From positions 7 to 64,006 of the forward strand of contig DQVX01000016.1 in NCBI GenBank assembly GCA_015661515.1: 64,000 bases of DNA. The letters are read 5' to 3'. The translations under genes and the position numbers were made by a program. This document shows, in pieces, positions 8,440 through 57,209 of the stretch. Every line of letters begins with the position of its first letter. The first letter of the stretch is position 1. The DNA comes from Nanobdellota archaeon. Lineage in GTDB: Archaea; Aenigmatarchaeota; Aenigmatarchaeia; Aenigmatarchaeales; SZUA-1535. Below the pieces are notes generated by a model, which ran no database searches, had not been told where the DNA came from, and was given only the letters and a program-made list of their open reading frames with translations.

Positions 8440-9444
8440 TTATAAAAACTCTATCGGTATTTTAGCTCCACAATAAGGACAAAGAGAATTTTTAAGATTT
8501 ATTTTTGTTACATAAAAGCCTTTTCTTTCTATTAAAAGCTTGCCGCATTCATGACAATATGTGTTTTCATAACTTCCAAGAACATTACCAAGATAAACGT
8601 ATTTTAACCCTTCTTCTTTGGCTATTGTAATACATTTTTCCAAGAATTTTATAGGTGTTGGTGGCAAATTAAGTTTATATGAAGGAAAATACCTTAAAAA
8701 ATGCACAGGGGTAAATTCCCCGAGATTTTCATATGTCCATTTACAAAAATTTCTCACATCCTTTTCACATTCCCCGTATTGGGTAACTATAAGATTTGTT
8801 ATTTCTACCCATACCTTGTTTTTAGCATATTCAAGAATTGCATCAAAAATTTTTTCGCTATATGGAGCATGAGAAAGTTTTAAATAAGCTTCTTTATTTC
8901 CAGAATTTTTCAAATCTATTACCACAGCATCCATATATTTAGAAAGCTCTTTAACAGCTTCTACGCTTGTATATCCATTTGTTACCATAGTATTGTATAA
9001 TTTTTCCTTTTTTGCAAGCTTTGCAATATCTAAAATAAATTCTATCCATATACTAGGTTCTGTATAGGTATATGAAATTCCATGTGCTAATCTTTTTGCT
9101 TTACTAACAATTTCTTCTGCTGTGATTTGTTCTCCTAAATAGCTCCATTCCTGAGAAATTTCAAAATTACAACAAAAATCACATGAAAGGTTGCATCCAG
9201 CACCAGCTATTGAAAACGCTATCGAAGCAGGAGCAAAGTGATAAAAAGGTTTTTTCTCTATTGGATCTATAGCAGCTGAAATTACTCTTCCGTAGCTTAG
9301 GGAATAAAGTTTTCCTTCTATGTTTTTTCTAACTCTACAAAATCCTGTTGCGTTATTTGTTATTACACAATTTCTTGGACAAAGAAAGCATTGAACTTTA
9401 GTATTTTTCTTTTTATAAAATAGCGCTTCTTTCATTTTTCTCAT
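8440..9444 (-). CDS. radical SAM enzyme, AmrS/PflA-like (AmmeMemoRadiSam-system type)
   Basis: N-terminal Cys motif 'CFLCPRNCVI...GFCRVR' plus radical SAM 'CNLSCDFC' (Cx3CxxC); 334 aa. Confidence 0.7.
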   Translation of the reverse strand: MRKMKEALFYKKKNTKVQCFLCPRNCVITNNATGFCRVRKNIEGKLYSLSYGRVISAAIDPIEKKPFYHFAPASIAFSIAGAGCNLSCDFCCNFEISQEWSYLGEQITAEEIVSKAKRLAHGISYTYTEPSIWIEFILDIAKLAKKEKLYNTMVTNGYTSVEAVKELSKYMDAVVIDLKNSGNKEAYLKLSHAPYSEKIFDAILEYAKNKVWVEITNLIVTQYGECEKDVRNFCKWTYENLGEFTPVHFLRYFPSYKLNLPPTPIKFLEKCITIAKEEGLKYVYLGNVLGSYENTYCHECGKLLIERKGFYVTKINLKNSLCPYCGAKIPIEFL

Positions 9445-12037: not shown

Positions 12038-13228
12038 TTAAATTACTTTCGTCTTATAAAGAATTAGTACTACCAAGACCCCTGAAATAAGAGTAGTGGC
12101 GCCAAGTACTAACAAAGCCTGTGTAAGTGTATAAACATCAGCGATATAGCCTATGACTGGAATTATAGAAGCGTAGAAAAGTTTTGTTAATAAAGACTTG
12201 GCGCTTAGTAGAGTAGCACGTATTCTGGAAGGTGTTAAAGAGTTTATGTATTCTGTTATTATTGGTTCTGAAAAACCTCGAATAAATTGTTGAATAAAAG
12301 CAAAAATAAATGCAAAGGAAAACACGAATTTGCCCATTAAAAAGTAGCTTATAGACAAAATAATCGGAAGTATAACAAGAGATCTAGTTTTTCCTATTTT
12401 TTCTTCGATGACATAAGCATATTTTGAAGAAAGAGCCGCAATAATATTGAACAAAGCAAAAATAAATCCAAAATATACTATGTCAATATTAGAAAGATTA
12501 AAGTAAGGTTGATATAACCAGAGTACAGCATTTGTAAAAGCTAGTAGTACAGCTGAATAAAGTATCAGTGCTTTTATCTGTGAGTGTTTTATGATATATT
12601 TTTTTATTGTAAAGAAAAAATCTTTGATATAATCCTTTTTTACTATTCTTTTGTAAATTCTTGGTTCTTTGAGACTGAGTGAAATTAGAAGTAAAATGAA
12701 GAAAAATGGTACGCATGCATAAAAAGTTAGGCGGAGATTTATTTTCCCTATAAACCCACCAACCACACTTGAAATAATTGCAGCTATAAAAGAATAAGAT
12801 ATAACACTTCCAGAAATTTTTTTATACTCCTTTTCCTCTCCTAAATTTTTTAAAGTATCATAAAGCAAGGCTAAATTCGCACCAGATAAAAAACTCGCTG
12901 ATATACCCCAGAGAATCTCTGCTACTAGAAACTGGAAGAAGTTATCACCAAGACTGTAAATGATTATAGCAAAGAATAGACTCAAGCTTCCTATTACCAA
13001 AGAAGTTTTTCTTCCATATAAGTCTGCGAAATAGCCTGAAGGAAGTTCAAGAACCACTATAGTAATAGAAAAAATAGATTGAAGTATCATAACTTCTGTT
13101 AAATTCAAACCATTATCCATCCAGAAAAGTACAACGACAGGAACAGGAAAAACCAAATTCGAAAGAAAATGTATGGCTTTTAATTTCCAGATATTGCTCT
13201 TAAGAGCTTTAGCTTGGGAAGAATGCAT
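12038..13228 (-). CDS. MFS transporter
   Basis: About 12 TM helices; 'GYFADLYGRK' motif-A-like loop between TM2 and TM3. Confidence 0.7.
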   Translation of the reverse strand: MHSSQAKALKSNIWKLKAIHFLSNLVFPVPVVVLFWMDNGLNLTEVMILQSIFSITIVVLELPSGYFADLYGRKTSLVIGSLSLFFAIIIYSLGDNFFQFLVAEILWGISASFLSGANLALLYDTLKNLGEEKEYKKISGSVISYSFIAAIISSVVGGFIGKINLRLTFYACVPFFFILLLISLSLKEPRIYKRIVKKDYIKDFFFTIKKYIIKHSQIKALILYSAVLLAFTNAVLWLYQPYFNLSNIDIVYFGFIFALFNIIAALSSKYAYVIEEKIGKTRSLVILPIILSISYFLMGKFVFSFAFIFAFIQQFIRGFSEPIITEYINSLTPSRIRATLLSAKSLLTKLFYASIIPVIGYIADVYTLTQALLVLGATTLISGVLVVLILYKTKVI

Positions 13229-13573
13229 ACATTTTTAATTTCAAAAATACTTATAAACCTTTTTTTCCAAAAACTTTTCATGCTTTGCGTATTTTATCTA
13301 GAAAAATATGGGAAAAAAGCAGAAGAAATTTTGAAAAAAGACGATATTTGTTCAAGACAAAGCATTGCTTTAAGAGAGGCAAAAACTCTTGGAATAGATA
13401 AAGAAGGTTATTTTCTTTTCTTTGAAGGTAGCGAGCAAGCATGTGAAAGAGCTAAAGAACTTTTAAAAGAATTTGTTAAAGAAGTTGAAGAAGAAGTCCT
13501 GGAAAAAGTAAGAAAAGCTTATGAAGAAGAAAACGAAAAAGCCTTACAAGGTTTTGGAGGAATTTTTGGATAA

Positions 13574-14869
13574 TTATTTTTTTCTTTCAAACCTTTTTAC
13601 TATTCCACAACAATTTTTTTCGGGGCAAATACCAATTTTACACTTAGGTGCTATTAGATTCTTAAGTTCTGGAACAGCTTTGGTTACATTTTCTGAAATT
13701 TTTTCAGCAAATCTACGAACTTCATAATGTGTAGTAGAGCAAGATCTTATCCCTATAAATCCAAAGGGATCAAGTAAATTATAACCATCTAAAATTAATT
13801 TAAACTTGACTTTAAGTGCATGTGGAATAATATATAAAGCATGCTTTTTTTCAACACCACTTTTTATAAGTTTTTCATAAAATGCTATTGCATTATGAAA
13901 AGCTTCTTTATAACTTTTTCCTGCGTTTGGAGGAATGTGAAAATATTCTTCTTTTGGATTTTTAAGGTATCGTTCTATTGCTTTATATATAGGCTCTACA
14001 AATTGCTTAACAGTTCTATGCCTTTTTATTTCATTCCAACCAGCTAATGAAATAAAAGAAACTACTTTTACAAATATTTCTAATTGTGCATGTTGTGAAA
14101 TTTTTTTCCAGTCAACACTTTTGTTATAAAGTTCTAAAATTTTTCTTATATCCCCTTTATAAATTACTTCTACACATTCATTTTCTAATATTTCATAATC
14201 TCCAAAAATATTTGGAAATGTATATCCTGTTTCATAAGCTTTTTCTGAGTTTTTAAAAATATAGGAAGTTTTTAGTTTTAAAATTTTTTCAAATTCGTTA
14301 GAAATTATTTTGAGCTCCTCTGGAATAGCTTTATTTCTTTTACATTCATTTATGCATGTTAAAATTGTTTGAGCAGGGAAAGAAAAAAAGCCATAAGAAG
14401 TAAAGCCTAAAGGTAAAATATTTCTTGCTTGATCATATCCGAACTTAAGTAAGTTTTTATATTCTTTTAATAACTCTTTGCAAATTTTTTCGTATTCGTT
14501 TTTATATTCCGAATTTTTAATAGCATCTGGAATTACTATATTATCCATAGAAATTTCTATTCTTCTTGAGCTAAACATTAAATAAGAACCAAAAGGAAAA
14601 GATGTAAGAAAAAAATCTATAACTCTACTTCCTTCTATCCAGAAATAGAAAATAGGAGTAGTCAATAAGCTTGCATGTCCTCGTTTTGTTGCTTCTTCAT
14701 GAAATTTTTTTACAGCATTTTCGCTTAAAGATTCAAGCATTTTTGTGAAATCTCCTTTTTTTGCTGTAAGAATTCCTGAAACTGCTAAAATTTTATCAGG
14801 AATAAAATTTTTATATACTGGGCCATAATCTATAAGCTCAACTTTTATACTTTCTGTTACACTCTTCAT
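13574..14869 (-). CDS. protein with two degenerate ThyX (Thy1)-like repeats and a C-terminal Cys cluster
   Basis: 'RGHASLLTTPIFYFWIEGSRVIDFFL' resembles the ThyX 'HxSV...FTFxIxGxSRA' block but lacks RHR. A second block 'IKRHRTVKQF...ERY' follows. The protein ends 'CKIGICPEKNCCGIV'. Confidence 0.3.
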   Translation of the reverse strand: MKSVTESIKVELIDYGPVYKNFIPDKILAVSGILTAKKGDFTKMLESLSENAVKKFHEEATKRGHASLLTTPIFYFWIEGSRVIDFFLTSFPFGSYLMFSSRRIEISMDNIVIPDAIKNSEYKNEYEKICKELLKEYKNLLKFGYDQARNILPLGFTSYGFFSFPAQTILTCINECKRNKAIPEELKIISNEFEKILKLKTSYIFKNSEKAYETGYTFPNIFGDYEILENECVEVIYKGDIRKILELYNKSVDWKKISQHAQLEIFVKVVSFISLAGWNEIKRHRTVKQFVEPIYKAIERYLKNPKEEYFHIPPNAGKSYKEAFHNAIAFYEKLIKSGVEKKHALYIIPHALKVKFKLILDGYNLLDPFGFIGIRSCSTTHYEVRRFAEKISENVTKAVPELKNLIAPKCKIGICPEKNCCGIVKRFERKK

Positions 14870-14904: not shown

Positions 14905-15177
14905 ATGCCGCTAATTGGAGTTGTTATAGTAAATGTAATTATTGCTTTAATATTGTTTTTAGTGGCTTTTCGAACATATAAGTCTTACAAACTAAGAATT
15001 TTTAAAAATGCTTGGTTAATCATAACAATTGGTAGTGTATTATGGCTAATTGGAACTTTATTATTATTAGTAGGAGAAGTAGGAGTAATTCATACTGCTT
15101 TATTTACAATCTTTATAATTTTATTAACAATTGCGCTTTATTTATTATCAAAAGTAGGAGAAACCTTAGGTGTTTAA
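14905..15177 (+). CDS. small membrane protein (90 aa)
   Basis: Three hydrophobic helices; lies immediately upstream of glyA. Confidence 0.4.
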   Translation: MPLIGVVIVNVIIALILFLVAFRTYKSYKLRIFKNAWLIITIGSVLWLIGTLLLLVGEVGVIHTALFTIFIILLTIALYLLSKVGETLGV

Positions 15178-16440
15178 ATGCTAAATAAAGTTTTAGAAGT
15201 AGTAAAAATGCAAAATTTGTGGAGAAGGAAACAATGCTTAAATATGATAGCAAGTGAAAATGTTCTCTCTCCTTTAGCAGAAAAGCTTTATATTTCTGAT
15301 TTTGAAGGCCGATATAATGAACATGATGAAGAATGCCACTACCAAGGCACAAAATATGCTATGGAAATAGAAAATATTGTTAATAAAATTTTTGGAGAAA
15401 AGTTTTCAACACCTTTTGTTGATTGTAGACCAATAGCAGGAGCTATAGCAAATCTTTGCGTATATCATGCTTTTCTTAAGCCTGGTGATGTTTTTATAGC
15501 CCCAGGCTTAACAGCAGGTGCTCATGTTTCTTCTACAGAATACGGAATAGCAAGTGTTAAAGGATTAAAAAGTATTTCAGCTTTTTTTGACTTCGAAAGA
15601 TTTGTGCTTGATGTAGATAAAACAGCTTTACTTATAGAAAAGCTCAATCCAAAACTTATTATGCTTGGTCGCTCTGTTTTTCTTTTTCCCGAGCCTATTA
15701 AAGAACTTAGAGAAATAGCAGGAGATTCAATAATAGTTTATGATGCTGCTCATGTTTTTGGATTAATTTATGCAAACGAGTTTCAATCTCCTTTTGAAGA
15801 AGGAGCTGATATAATTACAGCATCCACTCATAAAACATTTCCAGGTCCACAGGGGGGAATAATACTTGCTAAAGCAGATTTTGATGAACAAAAATGGAAA
15901 AAAATACAAAGAGCTATATTTCCAGGAGTAATTAGCAATCATCACATTCACCGCTTACCTGCTCTTGCGGTTACAGCTTTAGAGATGAATGAATTTGGAG
16001 AAAGTTATGCCAAGCAAATAATAAAAAATGCTAAATGTTTTGCACAAGCTTTATATGAGCTTGGATTTAATGTGCTTTGCGAAGAATATGGGTTTACAAA
16101 TTCACATCAAATTCTTGTTGATGTTAAAAATCTTGGTGGTGGAAAAATAGTAGCAGAAAAACTTGAAAAGGCTAATATTATTACAAATAAAATTGCTTTG
16201 CCATGGGATAAAGATAAAGATGCTACCCAAAACCCTTCTGGTATTAGAATAGGTGTACAAGAACTTACAAGATGGGGAATGACACAAAGCGAAATGAAAG
16301 AAATTGCAGAATTTTTCAAAAAAGTTTTAATAGATAACCAAGATCCAAGTAAAGTAAAACAAGAAGTCATAGAGTTTAGAAAGAATTTCCAAGAAATTAA
16401 ATATGCTTTTTCTTTAGAAGGTGAAATTTATGAAGTATAA
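15178..16440 (+). CDS. glyA: serine hydroxymethyltransferase
   Basis: 'MIASENVLSPLAEK' and the PLP-lysine region 'TASTHKTFPGPQGG'; 420 aa. Confidence 0.9.
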   Translation: MLNKVLEVVKMQNLWRRKQCLNMIASENVLSPLAEKLYISDFEGRYNEHDEECHYQGTKYAMEIENIVNKIFGEKFSTPFVDCRPIAGAIANLCVYHAFLKPGDVFIAPGLTAGAHVSSTEYGIASVKGLKSISAFFDFERFVLDVDKTALLIEKLNPKLIMLGRSVFLFPEPIKELREIAGDSIIVYDAAHVFGLIYANEFQSPFEEGADIITASTHKTFPGPQGGIILAKADFDEQKWKKIQRAIFPGVISNHHIHRLPALAVTALEMNEFGESYAKQIIKNAKCFAQALYELGFNVLCEEYGFTNSHQILVDVKNLGGGKIVAEKLEKANIITNKIALPWDKDKDATQNPSGIRIGVQELTRWGMTQSEMKEIAEFFKKVLIDNQDPSKVKQEVIEFRKNFQEIKYAFSLEGEIYEV

Positions 16441-26539: not shown

Positions 26540-28084
26540 TTATTTCACTCCAAATTTATCTAATAAAAAGCTTCGAATATCTTCGAAATCACTTCTTACT
26601 TTCGGAAACATATGTTTTTCAATTTGCTCTTTAAATTGGGTTATATAAGGACCTCGCTTTAGTGGATTAGCAATTTTTATTTCAGGAAATATTCCTTCTT
26701 TTTTCTCTTCTTCTTTTTCTTGTTCTTCTTCTGACGCTTCTTTTTTTGTTCCTATTATTTCTTCAATATATTTTTCAAATTCTATTTCTCTACATTTTAA
26801 TTCAAGCATTTTAAGTAGTAAAATATTTTGTGATATAAGATACATTTTGATATCAAAAGTTATATCTTCTATTTCTCCTCCAGGTAATTTAAGTCCAGCA
26901 CGGGCAACATCAATTTCTAAAAACTCATAATACATAAAGTTTGGATTCCAACCGTTCCTTCCATTTAACCAATCTTTAACAATTTCATCTGCAAGCTTAT
27001 CTGCGTATCTTGCATCATTTATAGGAACTATTTTTGCTTTTACTACCTCAAGTTCTTTTGCTTCATCTTTTGGAAGTTTTTTTCTCAAAAAAGGATAAAT
27101 ATCTGCTAATGGTGAAATTTTTAGTTTTTTACCATATAGAATTATATCCCTAACTACAGGATCGTAAGGATATACAAGCTCTTTAAGAGGCGCTCTCTCT
27201 ATAAATCCTAATTCAAACACTCTTAAATTCAACCAAGCCCAAAGCTTAATACAATTAACAAAAGTTGCTTGACCAGAAGATTCAAAAGTTGAAAATGGCA
27301 TTGCTATTCTTTCCGATGGTATTTCTGATCTTAATTTAAGCATTTTATATCGAGCGATATAAGGTTTAAGCCAATTTCTGTATTCTTCTACAAGTTTTTT
27401 TCTTGAATTAACAAGAGCTTGTAATCTTTCATATCTTTCTATAACTTCTCTTCCAAAAAGCTCTTTCCATTCTTTGTAAAGCTTGTTTTTTGTCGCAAGA
27501 ATAACAGCTTCTGCTTTAGATACTTCAAGCTTTTTCGCAATTTCATCAGGATTTTCTTCATCTCCTAATTTCATAAAGTCATAAATTATAGTCGGCCATC
27601 GTGAAACAATTGATCTTAGAGAAACTCCTTCGCCTGTATGAACATCTACTTGATCTACAAAAATAGCTCTTAATCTATGTTCATCATTTCTTTTCAAAGC
27701 ATCTACTATTTCTTTATATTTTCTTAAATCATGAAGTAACATTTCATATTCTCCAACTATTTGAGCTGCTGTAGCAATTCCAACTCTTATTTTTTCTTCA
27801 AGTGTACTTTTTTGAGCTTGAGTTAATTGATAATATTGTGCATGTGTTGGAGAAACTTCAATCCATTCATCCACTTTTTTAACCACCCAATCATCTTTAG
27901 GTAACCAGAATATGAATGAATAAAAAATCCCGGTTGCAGAACCAATAGAGCCTGTGAAGTTTAAAGTAGAAGCGGTACCTATGCTACCTTTTCCTGGTAC
28001 CCAACAATGAAACCATTCAAGCCATTTACTTTTTGGCTCGCTTTTTATTTGTGAGAGATCAAATATAGGCTTTTCAACAACCAT
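26540..28084 (-). CDS. hypothetical all-alpha protein (514 aa), translationally coupled to the TIM-barrel gene
   Basis: Long ORF with no recognisable motif. A 1-nt gap separates its stop from the next start. Acidic 'EEEQEKEEEKKE' stretch near the C-terminus. Confidence 0.5.
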   Translation of the reverse strand: MVVEKPIFDLSQIKSEPKSKWLEWFHCWVPGKGSIGTASTLNFTGSIGSATGIFYSFIFWLPKDDWVVKKVDEWIEVSPTHAQYYQLTQAQKSTLEEKIRVGIATAAQIVGEYEMLLHDLRKYKEIVDALKRNDEHRLRAIFVDQVDVHTGEGVSLRSIVSRWPTIIYDFMKLGDEENPDEIAKKLEVSKAEAVILATKNKLYKEWKELFGREVIERYERLQALVNSRKKLVEEYRNWLKPYIARYKMLKLRSEIPSERIAMPFSTFESSGQATFVNCIKLWAWLNLRVFELGFIERAPLKELVYPYDPVVRDIILYGKKLKISPLADIYPFLRKKLPKDEAKELEVVKAKIVPINDARYADKLADEIVKDWLNGRNGWNPNFMYYEFLEIDVARAGLKLPGGEIEDITFDIKMYLISQNILLLKMLELKCREIEFEKYIEEIIGTKKEASEEEQEKEEEKKEGIFPEIKIANPLKRGPYITQFKEQIEKHMFPKVRSDFEDIRSFLLDKFGVK

Positions 28085-29691: not shown

Positions 29692-31275
29692 TTACACCGA
29701 TATTTTGCTTACATCATAGAAACTTTTATAATCTATCATTTTCTCAAGCTTTTTAATATCTCTTTTGTAGAAATCTTCTTTAAGTTTTCTTTTCTTTTTT
29801 CTTTCCCATTCTTTTATACTCATTGAATATTTCTTCTGTATTTTATCCCTATACCATTGAGGAATCACATTAAATGCACAGAAAGGTACTATTTTTCCAT
29901 CAGGTTGTGCATAATGTATTGTGCATCTTTGTACTCTAGCTATATCATAGTTATAAAGATCCATAAAGTGCATTAGCCCTATAAATAGAGCTTTATGATG
30001 AATATCTCCCAAGGAGCGGTAATCATGTTTTATTATTGCTTTGAAAAGCATTTTGGCAAAATCTAATCCTTTTGGTTGAGATTTTTTATCAATAAAGCTT
30101 CTTAGTTTCCAAAGCACTTTAAGTGCTACAAGAATTTTTGATTTTCCTTTTTCTATTTCTTCTGTTTTTTCTTCAAGATATTCAAGCAAACCTTCGACAT
30201 CAAGAAATCTTGGAAGAGGTATTATTTTACCATCTTTACCTTTAAATAAATATGTTGCCATGCCACATGCAAAATGTGAAGATAAGTAATATTGTGGTTT
30301 TCCTGTAAAAACTTCTATGAAGCGAGAAAGAGCATGTGGTGTCGGAACAGGATAAAAATCTTCTGGCTCTACTATACCAGTTTCGGCTAATTTTTCTATT
30401 ACTTCTGGAATAGTTATTCTATATTTCTTAACCTCTGCTTTAGTCAATTTCCCTACCAATGAAACAGGTTGATAATTAATTCCTCTTACTATATCCATGT
30501 ATTTTATTCCAAATTTAAGTATATTTCCAACTTCATGATCATTGAAAGTTTTTACAACAGTCGGAACAAGCACTATTCCCAAACCTGCTTTTCTGCAGTT
30601 TTCTATTACAAGAGGTATTTCCCAATAATTTTTGAAATTTGTTTTTGGGCTAAGACCATCAAAACTAAGATAAACAGTATTAACACCAGCTTTTCTAACT
30701 TTTATTGCAAACTCAGGATCTAATGCAAGTCTTATACCATTTGTATTTAATTGTACATGGTCAAATCCTTCTTCTTTGGCTATCTCAATTATTCTAATTA
30801 TATCATCTCTAAGCGTTGGTTCTCCACCTGTAAATTGCACAGCTTTTGCTGGAATAGGTTTCATTGCTCTTAATTTTCTAAGCATTTTTCTTATTGTTTT
30901 TAGATCTGGCTCATAAACATAGCCCATGGCTTTTGCATAGAAAAAGCAATAAAAACATTGCAAATCACAGCGATTTGTAACAACAATATTTGCTAAAGCT
31001 GTATGCGACTTGTGTCTTGTACATATTCCACAATTTTTTGGGCAAGGATATTTTGGTTTTATACCATTTTTCACTCCTTTGCCATCACGAGCAAATTTCA
31101 TTGCCCTTAAATACATTTCATAGCTTGCATAGTAAAGATCTTCAAATTTTCCATGCTTAGGACAAGTTTTTCGAATATATACTTTTCCTTTTCTTTCAAA
31201 AATTACAGCTGGAAGGATTCTTAGACATTCAGGACAAAGGCTTTGAGTTTCAGCTATTTTTTTCATGTGAATCAA
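29692..31275 (-). CDS. radical SAM protein with N-terminal Zn-ribbon (527 aa); possibly tetraether-lipid-synthase (Tes/GDGT-MAS)-like
   Basis: 'CPECL...CPKHG' N-terminal ribbon; 'NRCDLQCFYCFF' Cx3CxxC; long C-terminal extension without SPASM or B12 motifs. Confidence 0.6.
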   Translation of the reverse strand: MIHMKKIAETQSLCPECLRILPAVIFERKGKVYIRKTCPKHGKFEDLYYASYEMYLRAMKFARDGKGVKNGIKPKYPCPKNCGICTRHKSHTALANIVVTNRCDLQCFYCFFYAKAMGYVYEPDLKTIRKMLRKLRAMKPIPAKAVQFTGGEPTLRDDIIRIIEIAKEEGFDHVQLNTNGIRLALDPEFAIKVRKAGVNTVYLSFDGLSPKTNFKNYWEIPLVIENCRKAGLGIVLVPTVVKTFNDHEVGNILKFGIKYMDIVRGINYQPVSLVGKLTKAEVKKYRITIPEVIEKLAETGIVEPEDFYPVPTPHALSRFIEVFTGKPQYYLSSHFACGMATYLFKGKDGKIIPLPRFLDVEGLLEYLEEKTEEIEKGKSKILVALKVLWKLRSFIDKKSQPKGLDFAKMLFKAIIKHDYRSLGDIHHKALFIGLMHFMDLYNYDIARVQRCTIHYAQPDGKIVPFCAFNVIPQWYRDKIQKKYSMSIKEWERKKKRKLKEDFYKRDIKKLEKMIDYKSFYDVSKISV

Positions 31276-31943: not shown

Positions 31944-33848
31944 TTATCCAAACCACCAATACCCTGCCCAGGGCCATGGCATTTGAAATGCTATATCTGC
32001 TGTTCTCGCTGTTGAGCTTCGGACACAAAAATTAAATGCAGAATTTTCTTGGAAAGACATAAATTTACCTTCTTGGAGCGAAACCCATATACATTGTCTG
32101 CAGCAATCCACTTCATTTTTACATTCTCCAGTCTCATCATACCATTTTGAACAAATATTATCGCATATTTTTGTTGGATCTTCGCAATCTCCTATCCAAA
32201 ACTGAGCATAAGCAAAACAAGGAGAAGCTAAGTAAAAATTATGCATTCCCGTTTCTTTAAAACCGCGATAAAAAAACTCTAATTTTCTATTCGCATTCAT
32301 TACTTTTATTCCGCATATTTTTGAGTTCTTCAAAGCATCCATGAGCTCTTTTTTCTTATAAGTTTTAGGAGCCATACCTGGACCTTTTATGCATATAGCA
32401 TTCCTACATTTTTCAGCTTCTCCTTTCACAGTTTCATATTTTGCTTCAAGTGTGTGAGCAATAAAAATAGGTGCGAATGTTACAGAAACTCCGTATAAAC
32501 AATTTTTGACTGTTCTTTCTTTCAACTCTTCATTTTCTAAAATTTCTTTTACTTTTCCAAGAGGTTTAGCTTCAATTTTTCCTGTATTTGGGTTATAATC
32601 TATTTCATATACTATCCAGTCTTTCATGTTTTTTGATGTGATATCCATTAAATCAACTTCTTGAATACTGTATCCTGTTGGAGATGAGGGGTCTTTCTTA
32701 AGTAAAAGCGTTTTTATTTTTGTTCTTCCGTTTTCTGTAACTTTTTTTAGTAAAAGAGACCATGCAGCGGTTTGGGTAATTTCTTTAGCAATTTCAGTTC
32801 CATCATTAAAGTAATAATATTGAGCATCTTCATCGGTTATATATCCAGCATTTTTCAAAGTTTCTATAATTACTTCAGGAGAAGCTATTCCCAAAGCAGC
32901 ACCGCTAAAAGAGCATATCCATGCTTGGTTATTCTCAATAAGAATTTTTAGTTTTTGGAAAAATATTGGTGCTCTTTTTTTAAGTTCTGTCGAAGCTTTT
33001 TTAATATTAGTTTTCGAAGGAAGAATAAAAGCCAAATTCTTAACATTAAAGTACTTTTTTGCTTTTTCTGTATAGTCTTTTAAACTTTGTTTGAATTTGT
33101 CAATCCTTTTAGCAGCTTCTTTATCCCCACCTTTTTCTAATCCTTTCGCAATCTCATCTAAGGCAGAAAGCATATCGTCTCCAGTTTCAGCTCTAATCAC
33201 ATATAATTTACCATCCTTTACCATAGGTTCTTTAACTTTTTTCCCACCAATTTTAATTGAGCCTCCAGTAAAATGTATTACTGCTTTTCCAAGTTTTGTT
33301 GTACCCCTTCCAAGTAGTTTAGCTGCTTCTGTTGCAAGTTTTATTCCAGTTCCGTATTTGAATATAAGCTTTCCAGCTATTTTCCCACCTTTTATTATAC
33401 CTTTACTGATTGGCCCACCAAGAAATATAAGTGCAACATCTAAGTAAAACCACCCGCTCCACGCATCACTTTCGACGTTTTCATATCTATCCCAGTAAAT
33501 TATATATTTAGGGTCTCCTAAAGCAGGGAGAGCTTCTTTTGAAATCATATTAAGTTCTTGTGGAAGAATAATCGGAACTCCACATGGCTTTTTTTCTAAA
33601 TAAGGAACTTCACATATTACAACATCTCCGTTACTCTTTCCTCCATATCTGTACGAATAATTATATTCTTCATAATTTTTTGCCACTTCAATAAAAGCGT
33701 CAACTAATCTTTTCTGTGTATTTAAAGCTTCCATTTTCATAAGAAAATCTTTTCCAAAAAGCAAATATGCAAGACCAAAAACAACTAAAGCAAAAACTAT
33801 TATTCTAACTAAAAATTCTAAATTAAGAGATAGAGCTTTTCTTATCAT
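31944..33848 (-). CDS. large signal-anchored extracellular protein with Cys-rich, aromatic C-terminus
   Basis: N-terminal TM 'IVFALVVFGLAYLLF'. The C-terminal 100 aa carry about 14 Cys ('DCEDPTKICDNICSKWYDETGECKNEVDCCRQC') and end 'WPWAGYWWFG'. Confidence 0.5.
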   Translation of the reverse strand: MIRKALSLNLEFLVRIIVFALVVFGLAYLLFGKDFLMKMEALNTQKRLVDAFIEVAKNYEEYNYSYRYGGKSNGDVVICEVPYLEKKPCGVPIILPQELNMISKEALPALGDPKYIIYWDRYENVESDAWSGWFYLDVALIFLGGPISKGIIKGGKIAGKLIFKYGTGIKLATEAAKLLGRGTTKLGKAVIHFTGGSIKIGGKKVKEPMVKDGKLYVIRAETGDDMLSALDEIAKGLEKGGDKEAAKRIDKFKQSLKDYTEKAKKYFNVKNLAFILPSKTNIKKASTELKKRAPIFFQKLKILIENNQAWICSFSGAALGIASPEVIIETLKNAGYITDEDAQYYYFNDGTEIAKEITQTAAWSLLLKKVTENGRTKIKTLLLKKDPSSPTGYSIQEVDLMDITSKNMKDWIVYEIDYNPNTGKIEAKPLGKVKEILENEELKERTVKNCLYGVSVTFAPIFIAHTLEAKYETVKGEAEKCRNAICIKGPGMAPKTYKKKELMDALKNSKICGIKVMNANRKLEFFYRGFKETGMHNFYLASPCFAYAQFWIGDCEDPTKICDNICSKWYDETGECKNEVDCCRQCIWVSLQEGKFMSFQENSAFNFCVRSSTARTADIAFQMPWPWAGYWWFG

Positions 33849-55913: not shown

Positions 55914-57209
55914 TTATTCACCTAATTCAAGTTCCGCATCGCTTATAATTATCCAGCCATCTCCATATGTTTCAAACTTTATTTTATTCTCTCCAATTGA
56001 AAGATCATCTTTTGTAAGTTTTATTTCATATTTTTCCCCTTCTTTTATTATACCATGAATAAGTATTCTTTTTTCTTTTCCATCACTTTTCACAACTTTT
56101 AAAGCAATAGATATGACATCTCCATAAATTTTTTGAATAGTAAAGGAAAGAGTAGCATTTTTCTTTAAAAGCATGTTGTATTCATCTTCTGAAATATTAA
56201 AAGTAAAAACAGGGCTTTCTTTTTCTCTATAAAAAAGTACCGCATTAACTTTTTCTATATAAAATGAAGTATTTTTTTCTGTGTAAAATTCGAGAAGATT
56301 TACACCTTTCTTTATTTCTATTTTTTCAGGTTCTAAATCTATCATAGGAGCTTTTTCTCTACCACGATATATTTCTTTTCCATTAAATTTTACTATTAAA
56401 TTTCCTTCTCCTTCTATTTTTTCAACTGTCCATAATAGTCTCAAAAGTCTTAATGTCTTTATTTCATCTCCTATATTGAATGGTAGTTCTTTTTTCTTGA
56501 GATCAAAAAAGTAAAGTGTAACATTGAATGAAAGAATATATGTAGTCGGGGCCCATAATCTCCAACCAGAAGAAGTTGCAAAAATCATTATTTCATTTCT
56601 TTCTTTAAGTTTTGAAACATTAAGATCTATTACAACTTTTCCACGTCTTGTAAGATTTTCATAAATAAGTTCATTGTTCAAAAATACTAATAAATTTCCA
56701 TAAAGATTTGTATCATGTACTTCAATTTCTATCTTTGCTTTTTCTACCATTTCAGGCCAGAATATATAAAATGTATTCTCATAAGCCTTTCTACCTCCAA
56801 AACCATTTTTTACTGTTATATTGCTTTCTGAAAGAGCAATTTTTTCATCTGCAGTAAAGCTAATAATAACATTTTCAGCAATTGTTATGTGTTTTATTTT
56901 TTCATTTATTCCAACTTCAAATATTTTTATTACACTTTTATTTTCTGTTTCTGGAGGAGAAGGATAAGAAATATAAGTTACTTGATTTTCTTGAGGAGAA
57001 ATAAAAAATCCTTCTTGAAAAGTAATTACAAAAAGTCCTGCAAGAAGTAATATAGCTACTGCCATTACTCTCTCAAAATCTGACATAAAGATATTAAGTT
57101 TTCTAAATAATAAAAAGTTTGTGAAAATGTGGTATAACGTAAAGGAAAAGGCTGTGAAGCTTAGAATAGAGGCTCCAGAAGAAATATTTTTTATAAAGCA
57201 TTTTATCAC
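55914..57209 (-). CDS. signal-anchored extracytoplasmic protein (start probably the internal Met at 'MSDFERVMAVAILL')
   Basis: TM 'AVAILLLAGLFVITF' followed by a ~390-aa beta-rich domain. Confidence 0.45.
   Translation of the reverse strand: MIKCFIKNISSGASILSFTAFSFTLYHIFTNFLLFRKLNIFMSDFERVMAVAILLLAGLFVITFQEGFFISPQENQVTYISYPSPPETENKSVIKIFEVGINEKIKHITIAENVIISFTADEKIALSESNITVKNGFGGRKAYENTFYIFWPEMVEKAKIEIEVHDTNLYGNLLVFLNNELIYENLTRRGKVVIDLNVSKLKERNEIMIFATSSGWRLWAPTTYILSFNVTLYFFDLKKKELPFNIGDEIKTLRLLRLLWTVEKIEGEGNLIVKFNGKEIYRGREKAPMIDLEPEKIEIKKGVNLLEFYTEKNTSFYIEKVNAVLFYREKESPVFTFNISEDEYNMLLKKNATLSFTIQKIYGDVISIALKVVKSDGKEKRILIHGIIKEGEKYEIKLTKDDLSIGENKIKFETYGDGWIIISDAELELGE

Follow-up and report, generated by a model that had tools for sequence, protein, structure and literature searches.

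A double-length ThyX-like protein of a DPANN archaeon is most likely a single-chain flavin-dependent thymidylate synthase with its active-site residues divided between two domains

The 64,000-nucleotide stretch of contig DQVX01000016.1 (assembly GCA_015661515.1, Nanobdellota archaeon) analysed here, referred to below as the window, encodes on its reverse strand a 431-aa protein that resembles ThyX, the flavin-dependent thymidylate synthase, twice over, with neither half carrying the full ThyX motif. The question raised by this locus is whether such a protein could still make thymidylate, and in what form, or whether it has been turned to another use. Judged from sequence comparison, the gene most likely codes for a "pseudo-dimer" of flavin-dependent thymidylate synthase (ThyX/FDTS, EC 2.1.1.148) in a single chain, and its product is most likely an ordinary DNA-precursor enzyme of unusual, unstudied architecture, a new function not being indicated.

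The 431-aa protein (the query) has both a Thy1 profile match and the ThyX fold. Pfam Thy1 (PF02511) matched the whole protein in two stretches (E=7.5e-29), and in separate searches residues 1-222 scored 46.8 bits (profile positions 17-164) and residues 223-431 scored 58.1 bits (positions 64-191), both above the gathering score of 24.8. Profiles of the two halves aligned with each other (hhalign, probability 89.6%, E=1.9e-6), and in tblastn with ThyX of Clostridioides difficile as query each half of the gene was matched (E 9e-7 and 4e-10). Thus, the ThyX unit is duplicated within the gene. The AlphaFold2 model, made from an alignment of 34 homologues, was confident (mean predicted local distance difference test score, pLDDT, 93.3; predicted template modelling score 0.91). 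An earlier sequence-only reading of the locus had described a duplicated ThyX fold with two degenerate repeats, the first keeping an HxS...F.F.IEG.SR block with RHR replaced and the second keeping RHR in an altered context, and this description was borne out in all these parts. The first repeat has H65-A-S67, F74.F76.IEGSR82 and S90-F91-P92, and in the second R283-H284-R285 is followed by TVKQFVEPIY where canonical ThyX has xxSxxxxSxRY. The contiguous motif RHRxxSxxxxSxR(Y) is present in neither half: the N-half reads SFPFGSYLMFSSRR, in which RHR is gone and S..S.R is retained, and the C-half reads RHRTVKQFVEPIYK, in which RHR is retained and S.R is gone.

Canonical ThyX is a homotetramer. According to the structures from Mycobacterium tuberculosis (Mtb) and Helicobacter pylori (Hp), each active site is built by three subunits, of which subunit A gives the RHR motif and the Arg R199(Mtb)/R174(Hp), subunit B gives Ser71(Mtb) of the HxS motif, for the phosphate of flavin adenine dinucleotide (FAD), together with Arg190(Mtb)/R165(Hp), and subunit C gives Arg87, Ser105, Arg107 and Tyr108 in Mtb numbering (PMC6514825). 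The halves of the query were compared with this scheme by MAFFT alignment to ThyX of Thermotoga maritima and to the single-domain ThyX proteins of C. difficile and Geoalkalibacter, which are closer to them. MAFFT was preferred to glocal alignment of T. maritima ThyX with the half-profiles (hmmalign), which covered the C-terminal parts only. The numbering of the T. maritima sequence used matches the published H53, R78, S88, R90, Y91, R147, R165 and R174.

The N-domain retains residues of subunits B and C. H65-A66-S67 and R149 are invariant in the alignment of 34 close homologues, and R82 aligns to the "GISR" of C. difficile ThyX, the canonical role of which is that of an Arg of subunit C binding deoxyuridine monophosphate (dUMP). 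RHR and the R174 equivalent are gone from this domain, and no R174 equivalent is conserved in the N-half. The C-domain retains the residues of subunit A, that is, RHR and the R174 equivalent, and is without HxS, the SR-Arg, the SxRY loop and the equivalents of R147 and R165: L275 stands in the SR-Arg position and L345 at the R147 position, and in the AlphaFold2 model a predicted helix (294-303) replaces the S88-Y91 loop. None of the canonical active-site residues is kept in both halves. With H65/S67, R82, S100, R102 and R149 from the N-half, RHR283-285 and R375 from the C-half, and the deviations limited to Y91 (R103) and R165 (Q167), the two halves together appear to hold almost all the residues that make up a single canonical ThyX active site.

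We propose that, after an ancient tandem duplication, the two copies lost catalytic residues in a complementary way, which would have limited the C-domain to role A and the N-domain to roles B and C. Because the A-role residues are found only in the C-domain and the surviving B- and C-role residues in the N-domain, a homodimer could mimic the ThyX tetramer with two sites. Two chains would form a ThyX-like pseudo-tetramer in which the C-domains lie diagonal to each other. The four sites of a D2 tetramer draw on its subunits in the combinations (A,B,C), (B,A,D), (C,D,A) and (D,C,B). With C-domains as A and D and N-domains as B and C, exactly two of these would be complete, (A,B,C) and (D,C,B), and they would be related by the single remaining true two-fold axis, while the other two would be without RHR; any other placement of the domains would give zero complete sites. 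The dimer would in this way have two complete FAD/dUMP sites and two dead ones, versus four in the ThyX tetramer. In the predicted reaction dUMP would be methylated to thymidine monophosphate (dTMP), with FAD as a relay reduced by an external donor and the C1 unit coming from methylene-tetrahydropterin made by the adjacent serine hydroxymethyltransferase (SHMT). We regard it as rather likely that the protein is a functional two-site thymidylate synthase.

The division of residues is shared by the relatives of the query. A word-indexed search gave 35 clusters of full-length homologues with 36-70% identity to the query, and in the 34 close homologues the split residue pattern is invariant or nearly so. 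An exhaustive HMMER search with the 34-homologue alignment against 1.84 billion representatives yielded 1769 matches at E≤1e-3, 467 at E≤1e-10 and 83 at E≤1e-30; most of the best 150 matches have 420-590 aa and give a single alignment that spans both halves. A further profile search with a more diverse alignment, covering at most 8000 candidates, contributed little more. We put the family at a minimum of 467 clusters at 50% identity, in DPANN archaea, Aigarchaeota, bacteria of the Candidate Phyla Radiation (CPR) and Clostridia. Position counts were taken from 140 full-length representatives of this wider two-domain family. R283 was found in all 140, H or Q at 284 in 135, R285 in 124, R375 in 139 and C377 in 137. 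On the N-terminal side, S100 was kept in 130, R102 in 128, H65 in 120, S67 in 106 (with Ala instead in 15), R or K at position 82 in 115 and R149 in 97. The three N-half positions equivalent to RHR all vary widely among these relatives, and none of the listed two-domain relatives shows RHR there. At position 103 most have R (98), with Y in 14 and F in 7, and some family members retain SxRY. The Q167 column holds Arg in 46 of the 140, mainly in the group of Pacearchaeota, Nanoarchaeota and CPR bacteria, plus a Lachnospiraceae-type group, and that the N-half keeps the B-role Arg in those groups is as the split-role model predicts.

A scan of one genome per GTDB species gave 79 loci. They included Aenigmatarchaeota, Undinarchaeota, Altiarchaeota and Woesearchaeota at 35-69% identity and many full-length relatives in Aigarchaeota/Caldarchaeales at 24-32%. 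A more distant group in which RHR is replaced by RQR occurs in Pacearchaeota, Nanoarchaeota, Micrarchaeia and CPR bacteria (Parcubacteria, Azambacteria) and is labelled "FAD-dependent thymidylate synthase" by NCBI, as is a group in Lachnospiraceae that keeps SSRY (MCI8770774.1). Relatives bear this name at both NCBI and JGI. Forms of 540-564 aa lie on contigs with archaeal-type neighbours, for example an eIF2-gamma-like protein. The coordinates of the features are collected in Table 1.

Table 1. Positions in the window of the ThyX-like gene, its domains and aligned active-site residues, and the neighbouring glyA
Feature	Position	Strand	Basis or state
Whole gene, 431-aa two-domain ThyX-like protein	13574..14869	-	ORF with ATG start; stop codon 13574-13576
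N-terminal ThyX-like domain, residues 1-222	14204..14869	-	Thy1 46.8 bits; alignments to ThyX of T. maritima, C. difficile and Geoalkalibacter
H65-A66-S67, HxS motif (G64 before) = T. maritima GH53xT55, M. tuberculosis S71	14669..14677	-	Kept
R82 of G80-S81-R82 = M. tuberculosis R87, H. pylori R66, "GISR" Arg	14624..14626	-	Kept
S90-F91-P92 in the RHR position	14594..14602	-	RHR lost; alignments
S100-S101-R102-R103 = T. maritima S88-G89-R90-Y91 substrate loop	14561..14572	-	Ser and Arg kept
R149 in "DQARNILPLG" = T. maritima R147 in "ARIVLPL"	14423..14425	-	Kept; hmmsearch alignment
C-terminal ThyX-like domain, residues 223-401	13667..14203	-	PDB phmmer alignments to 6j61 and 4gtc; half (223-431) Thy1 58.1 bits
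R283-H284-R285, RHR motif (canonical: binds FAD and dUMP)	14015..14023	-	Kept
R375-S376-C377; R375 = T. maritima R174 (canonical dUMP binding)	13739..13747	-	Kept
C-terminal tail, residues 402-431 and stop	13574..13666	-	C410, C415 and C421 within PKCKIGICPEKNCC (13607-13642)
glyA, serine hydroxymethyltransferase, divergently transcribed neighbour	15178..16440	+	Pfam SHMT 191 bits; NF000586 392 bits vs cutoff 335

The neighbourhood points in the direction of thymidylate synthesis. SHMT regenerates the methylene-C1 donor. When the open reading frames (ORFs) of all loci were clustered, 21 of 25 DPANN loci, counting the window, proved to have SHMT no more than 2 kb away from the ThyX-like gene. 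Its arrangement varies: it is divergent in the window, in L001-L003 and in others, lies upstream, co-directional and abutting or overlapping (0-5 nt between the ORFs) in L012, L014-L016, L018 and L019, follows on the same strand in L008, and is convergent in L017 and L020. Adjacency that survives such rearrangement argues for a functional link. ThyX leaves the pterin reduced, so that SHMT and ThyX make a complete thymidylate cycle (PMC6514825). In a CPR locus (L093:8001-10010, on the Parcubacteria-type contig CAYTKF010000005.1) a thymidylate kinase starts 1 nt after the stop codon of the two-domain ThyX, an apparent thyX-tmk operon, and next to the 540-aa archaeal form the abutting convergent neighbour is a class II ribonucleotide reductase. 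QueD-like and QueC-like neighbours, identified by reading the sequences, were seen in 8-9 Aigarchaeota loci and were discarded as a functional link, these being a minority of closely related syntenic loci. Two small ORFs flank the gene of the query (13214-13573, +, 119 aa; 14905-15177, +, a hydrophobic 90 aa). Both are without a Pfam match and without a homologue in the related loci, and neither was counted as belonging to the system. If they are not genes, which is possible, the divergent intergenic region between thyX and glyA would be 309 bp.

No other thymidylate synthase was seen at these loci. Among the window ORFs of at least 70 aa, phmmer with the T. maritima ThyX sequence found this gene only and with the E. 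coli ThyA sequence gave zero matches. A six-frame tblastn of the window with ThyX and ThyA queries had this gene as its sole match, and Pfam scans of about 60 window ORFs gave no further thymidylate synthase, in agreement with the sequence-only reading, which had seen no canonical thyA or thyX in the window. Neither thyA nor another thyX was found in the 79 related loci.

Several points weigh against a two-site thymidylate synthase. The position of the lid Tyr (T. maritima Y91), a residue described as strictly conserved and critical (PMC11940539), is occupied by R103, and Arg stands there in most relatives too. In the query clade the R165-like Arg, which binds the FAD phosphate, is replaced by Q167 in the N-half and is absent from the C-half, where Y363/N364 take its position. 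The score against the thyX equivalog TIGR02170, 54.5 bits, is below the cutoff of 87.9. About 15 residues after the C-half RHR are ambiguous, MAFFT giving two solutions, of which we took the one that pairs the predicted strand 288-291 with the N-half strand 95-98. The SHMT link is limited to the DPANN clade, the Aigarchaeota loci having other neighbours and showing lineage-specific synteny only. A second thymidylate synthase is possible elsewhere in the genome, of which only 64 kb are visible. Furthermore, the two-site assembly is drawn from alignments and published subunit roles only, and the quaternary arrangement, the binding of FAD and dUMP, the activity and the metal considered below are predictions from sequence.

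Some of these deviations would also suit a neofunctionalised ThyX paralogue that modifies another substrate, such as uridine or cytidine monophosphate (UMP or CMP, as PolB), deoxycytidine monophosphate or uracil in RNA. The contiguous RHRxxSxxxxSxR motif lies in neither half, Y91 has become Arg and the R165 equivalent is lost, the score is under the equivalog cutoff, the basic residues R63, K409 and K411 are additionally invariant in the 34 close homologues, and ThyX paralogues with new roles are on record (PMC5954106). However, the residues that survive are those which in one canonical site bind FAD, uracil and the phosphate of dUMP, the genes alongside are for SHMT, thymidylate kinase and ribonucleotide reductase and not for RNA modification or antibiotics, some family members retain SxRY, and for U54/U55 of tRNA the window already has the archaeal enzyme Pus10. 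DPANN and CPR organisms have small genomes, and the family is frequent in them while another thymidylate synthase was seen in no locus examined. We consider neofunctionalisation distinctly unlikely. The sequence-only reading had suggested a new, possibly RNA-directed function, and this idea does not hold up well against complementary losses, a context of dTMP synthesis and a Cys tail that is found in canonical ThyX as well.

The same reading had named a simply fused, functional ThyX as one outcome that would speak against it, and this came close to what was found, although neither half is canonical alone. In its full form, a redundant fusion with both domains competent and four sites per dimer, it would agree with both halves passing the Thy1 gathering threshold. 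It is already contradicted by the alignments, in which the N-half has S-F-P for RHR and no R174 equivalent and the C-half is without HxS, the SR-Arg, S88/R90 and R147, and these absences are family-wide; we give it hardly any credence. A dead pseudoenzyme, or a structural or regulatory protein on a ThyX scaffold, would explain the degenerate motifs of both halves and the score below the equivalog cutoff. Yet exactly the ligand residues are invariant across proteins down to ~21-25% identity to the query, which argues against a dead scaffold, and the operon link with SHMT is conserved, so that this explanation appears just as improbable. The protein seems best filed as ThyX despite failing the contiguous motif and the TIGR02170 cutoff.

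The C-terminal tail reads C410-KIGI-C415-PEKN-C420-C421, which is Cx4Cx4CC; the terminal Cys cluster reported from the first inspection is present, whereas the spacing given for it, CxxxCxxxxCC, was wrong. In the 34 close homologues as well as in the 140 relatives, C377, C410, C415 and C421 are conserved and C420 is not. C377 lies two residues past R375, and its aligned counterparts are the last residue of "RCC" in C. difficile ThyX and D176 in T. maritima. C377 together with at least three downstream Cys was found in 136 of the 140 relatives, and members of the RQR group that lack the first tail Cys have another one farther on (CPE-x3-C-x2-C), by which four Cys are maintained. In the AlphaFold2 model the pLDDT of the tail falls from 87 to 42, and there is no secondary structure between residues 402 and 422.

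In tblastn against plasmid records the C-half of the query, with its tail as far as residues 429-430, matches genes annotated as thyX in C. difficile and Geoalkalibacter. Both encode a 252-aa single-domain ThyX with all canonical motifs present (GHxS, GISR..HQ.VRHR.ASFSQQSQRY, DAR and NAR) and also with "R-C-C-x-RAQWEIR" and "GP(S/P)C-x4-CPEG-x3-CG", aligned to C377, C410, C415 and C421. The genes lie at L090:2354-3112 (C. difficile, NZ_CP149745.1) and L089:2345-3103 (Geoalkalibacter pGSUB1); the "plasmid" record NZ_CP149745.1 looks chromosomal, with cysS, rlmB, sigH and tuf around thyX. Two further single-domain ThyX proteins (P0178 and P0170) carry the four-Cys motif. We use Cys-tailed ThyX as an informal name, defined here, for the subclass with a Cys two residues after the R174-like Arg and a GPxC-x4-CPE-x3-5-C tail, and the query belongs to it with C377, C410, C415 and C421. 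As the four Cys occur also in canonical single-domain ThyX such as that of C. difficile, they are no marker of new function. They appear to be inherited from the Cys-tailed single-domain class and, after duplication, to have been kept only in the C-domain. The motif was found in no solved ThyX: M. tuberculosis reads "MRASEHA", and the PDB alignments all end before the tail.

It is probable that the four Cys bind a metal, Zn or Fe-S, with a structural or electron-transferring role. Their position beside the dUMP-binding Arg and their non-CxxC spacing would be compatible with either. More specifically, they could form a redox centre, for example [4Fe-4S], that passes electrons from a ferredoxin or thioredoxin-reductase-like partner to FAD, which we regard as unlikely. 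Two weak hints point that way. Matches that extended into the tail came only from records linked to anaerobes (C. difficile, Acetoanaerobium, Geoalkalibacter, Desulfovibrio phages and gut phage contigs), and alignments to ThyX of haloarchaeal and Sulfolobales viruses end before it. The other hint is in the neighbours. In Nanoarchaeota (L097:6394-7275 and L098:4103-5071) a thioredoxin-reductase-like Pyr_redox_2 flavoprotein of ~300 aa lies on the same strand directly downstream of the two-domain ThyX, with a 32-nt gap in L097 and an overlap in L098, and in Micrarchaeia (L095:6520-7218 and L096:1592-2290) the following ORF has a faint thioredoxin-family Pfam match only. These Pyr_redox_2 and thioredoxin-like neighbours could be the external reductants of Cys-tailed ThyX. 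If the redox role were true, Cys-tailed ThyX, the two-domain, two-site form among them, would be an NADPH-independent, oxygen-sensitive type of thymidylate synthase typical of anaerobes, DPANN and CPR organisms.

Compared with the canonical homotetrameric ThyX (T. maritima TM0449, PDB 1O26/5CHP; M. tuberculosis 2AF6), the query has two domains in one chain, a motif split between them and predicted complete sites in at most two of four positions, an Arg for the lid Tyr, no R165-like Arg (a loss shared by its clade), and a Cys tail with C377, which no solved ThyX has. The proteins that its C-half matches best in sequence, ThyX of C. difficile (WP_021364966.1) and Geoalkalibacter subterraneus (WP_052465129.1), have the identical four-Cys site ("R-C-C ... 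GPxC-x4-CPEG-x3-CG") and differ in having ~252 aa, the complete motif in one domain and, presumably, an ordinary homotetramer; in the query the unit is duplicated and the Cys site is in the C-domain only. The two-domain ThyX proteins in the databases from Lachnospiraceae, Pacearchaeota, Nanoarchaeota, Micrarchaeia and Parcubacteria are like the query in length (420-590 aa), complementary residues and four Cys. The query clade (Aenigmatarchaeota, Undinarchaeota, Altiarchaeota and Aigarchaeota) differs from the Pacearchaeota, Nanoarchaeota and CPR group in having RHR instead of RQR and Gln for the N-half R165-like Arg, and its SHMT linkage is tight. In contrast, PolB, a UMP/dUMP methylase of Streptomyces cacaoi (PDB 4P5A), is single-domain, has no Cys tail and belongs to an antibiotic gene cluster, whereas the context of the query is primary DNA-precursor metabolism.

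Double-length ThyX-like proteins are also known from phages. Two entries of BFVD named "thymidylate synthase", A0A7D4 of Microcystis phage LMM01 (491 aa) and A0A127AWA5 of Bacillus phage SP-15 (413 aa), align over both domains of the model, with TM-scores, normalised to the query, of 0.59 and 0.47. An IMG/VR scan with the close-homologue alignment revealed no viral relatives in the clade of the query. The gut "phage" contig MT835736.1 has a two-domain homologue, and this record, being UNVERIFIED and unannotated, was not used as evidence.

That the family is labelled ThyX in databases is already known, and the duplication has been remarked on earlier: in the one relevant remark that the literature searches gave, dating from 2009, Chloroflexi ThyX, perhaps of the same family as the query, was said to contain "a domain duplication" that "has not been characterized" (PMC3224940). 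We found no biochemical characterisation of the two-domain family in the literature, and in the searchable literature no description of the complementary site split, the two-site prediction or the four-Cys site, the last neither structural nor biochemical. ThyX is of interest as a target for antibacterials, and its active site is a textbook example of one shared by three subunits. The two-domain form would be a natural half-of-sites enzyme in which three subunit roles are sorted into two domains, and in a single chain mutations could tell apart what each subunit contributes. This form may be the sole route to dTMP in DPANN and CPR organisms. Should the four Cys be a metal or redox centre, much of the ThyX family would have an unrecognised cofactor. 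The functional annotation is unchanged, as genomes already call such proteins ThyX.

The window has a G+C content of ~30%, and among its genes are archaeal housekeeping genes for ribosomal proteins S2, S15 and S3Ae, fibrillarin, Pus10, Nre, SRP54, a protein of the eRF1 family, deoxyhypusine synthase and NurA; the nearest relatives of the 431-aa protein come from genome bins of Aenigmatarchaeota and other DPANN archaea. A radical S-adenosylmethionine (SAM) synthase of tetraether (glycerol dialkyl glycerol tetraether, GDGT) lipids, Tes, is encoded at 29692-31275 (-) (NF045702, 701 bits vs cutoff 450), the host being apparently an Aenigmatarchaeota (DPANN) genome. The Pfam match "Zn_ribbon_HMPTM" in the same gene had prompted the idea of methanopterin as the C1 carrier, which was dropped after NCBIfam assigned the gene to Tes. 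Three large ORFs of 514, 634 and 431 aa (26540-28084, 31944-33848 and 55914-57209, all on the - strand) had no Pfam or NCBIfam match at the thresholds applied. A radical SAM gene of the AmmeMemoRadiSam system lies ~4 kb from the ThyX-like gene (8440-9444, -), Memo, AMMECR1 and a radical SAM protein are close to a Micrarchaeia relative (L095:1-2548), and a Memo-like cluster, judged by sequence reading, is the commonest neighbour in the Aigarchaeota loci (15 loci). This proximity of Memo and AmmeMemoRadiSam genes to ThyX-like genes is possibly conserved synteny only.

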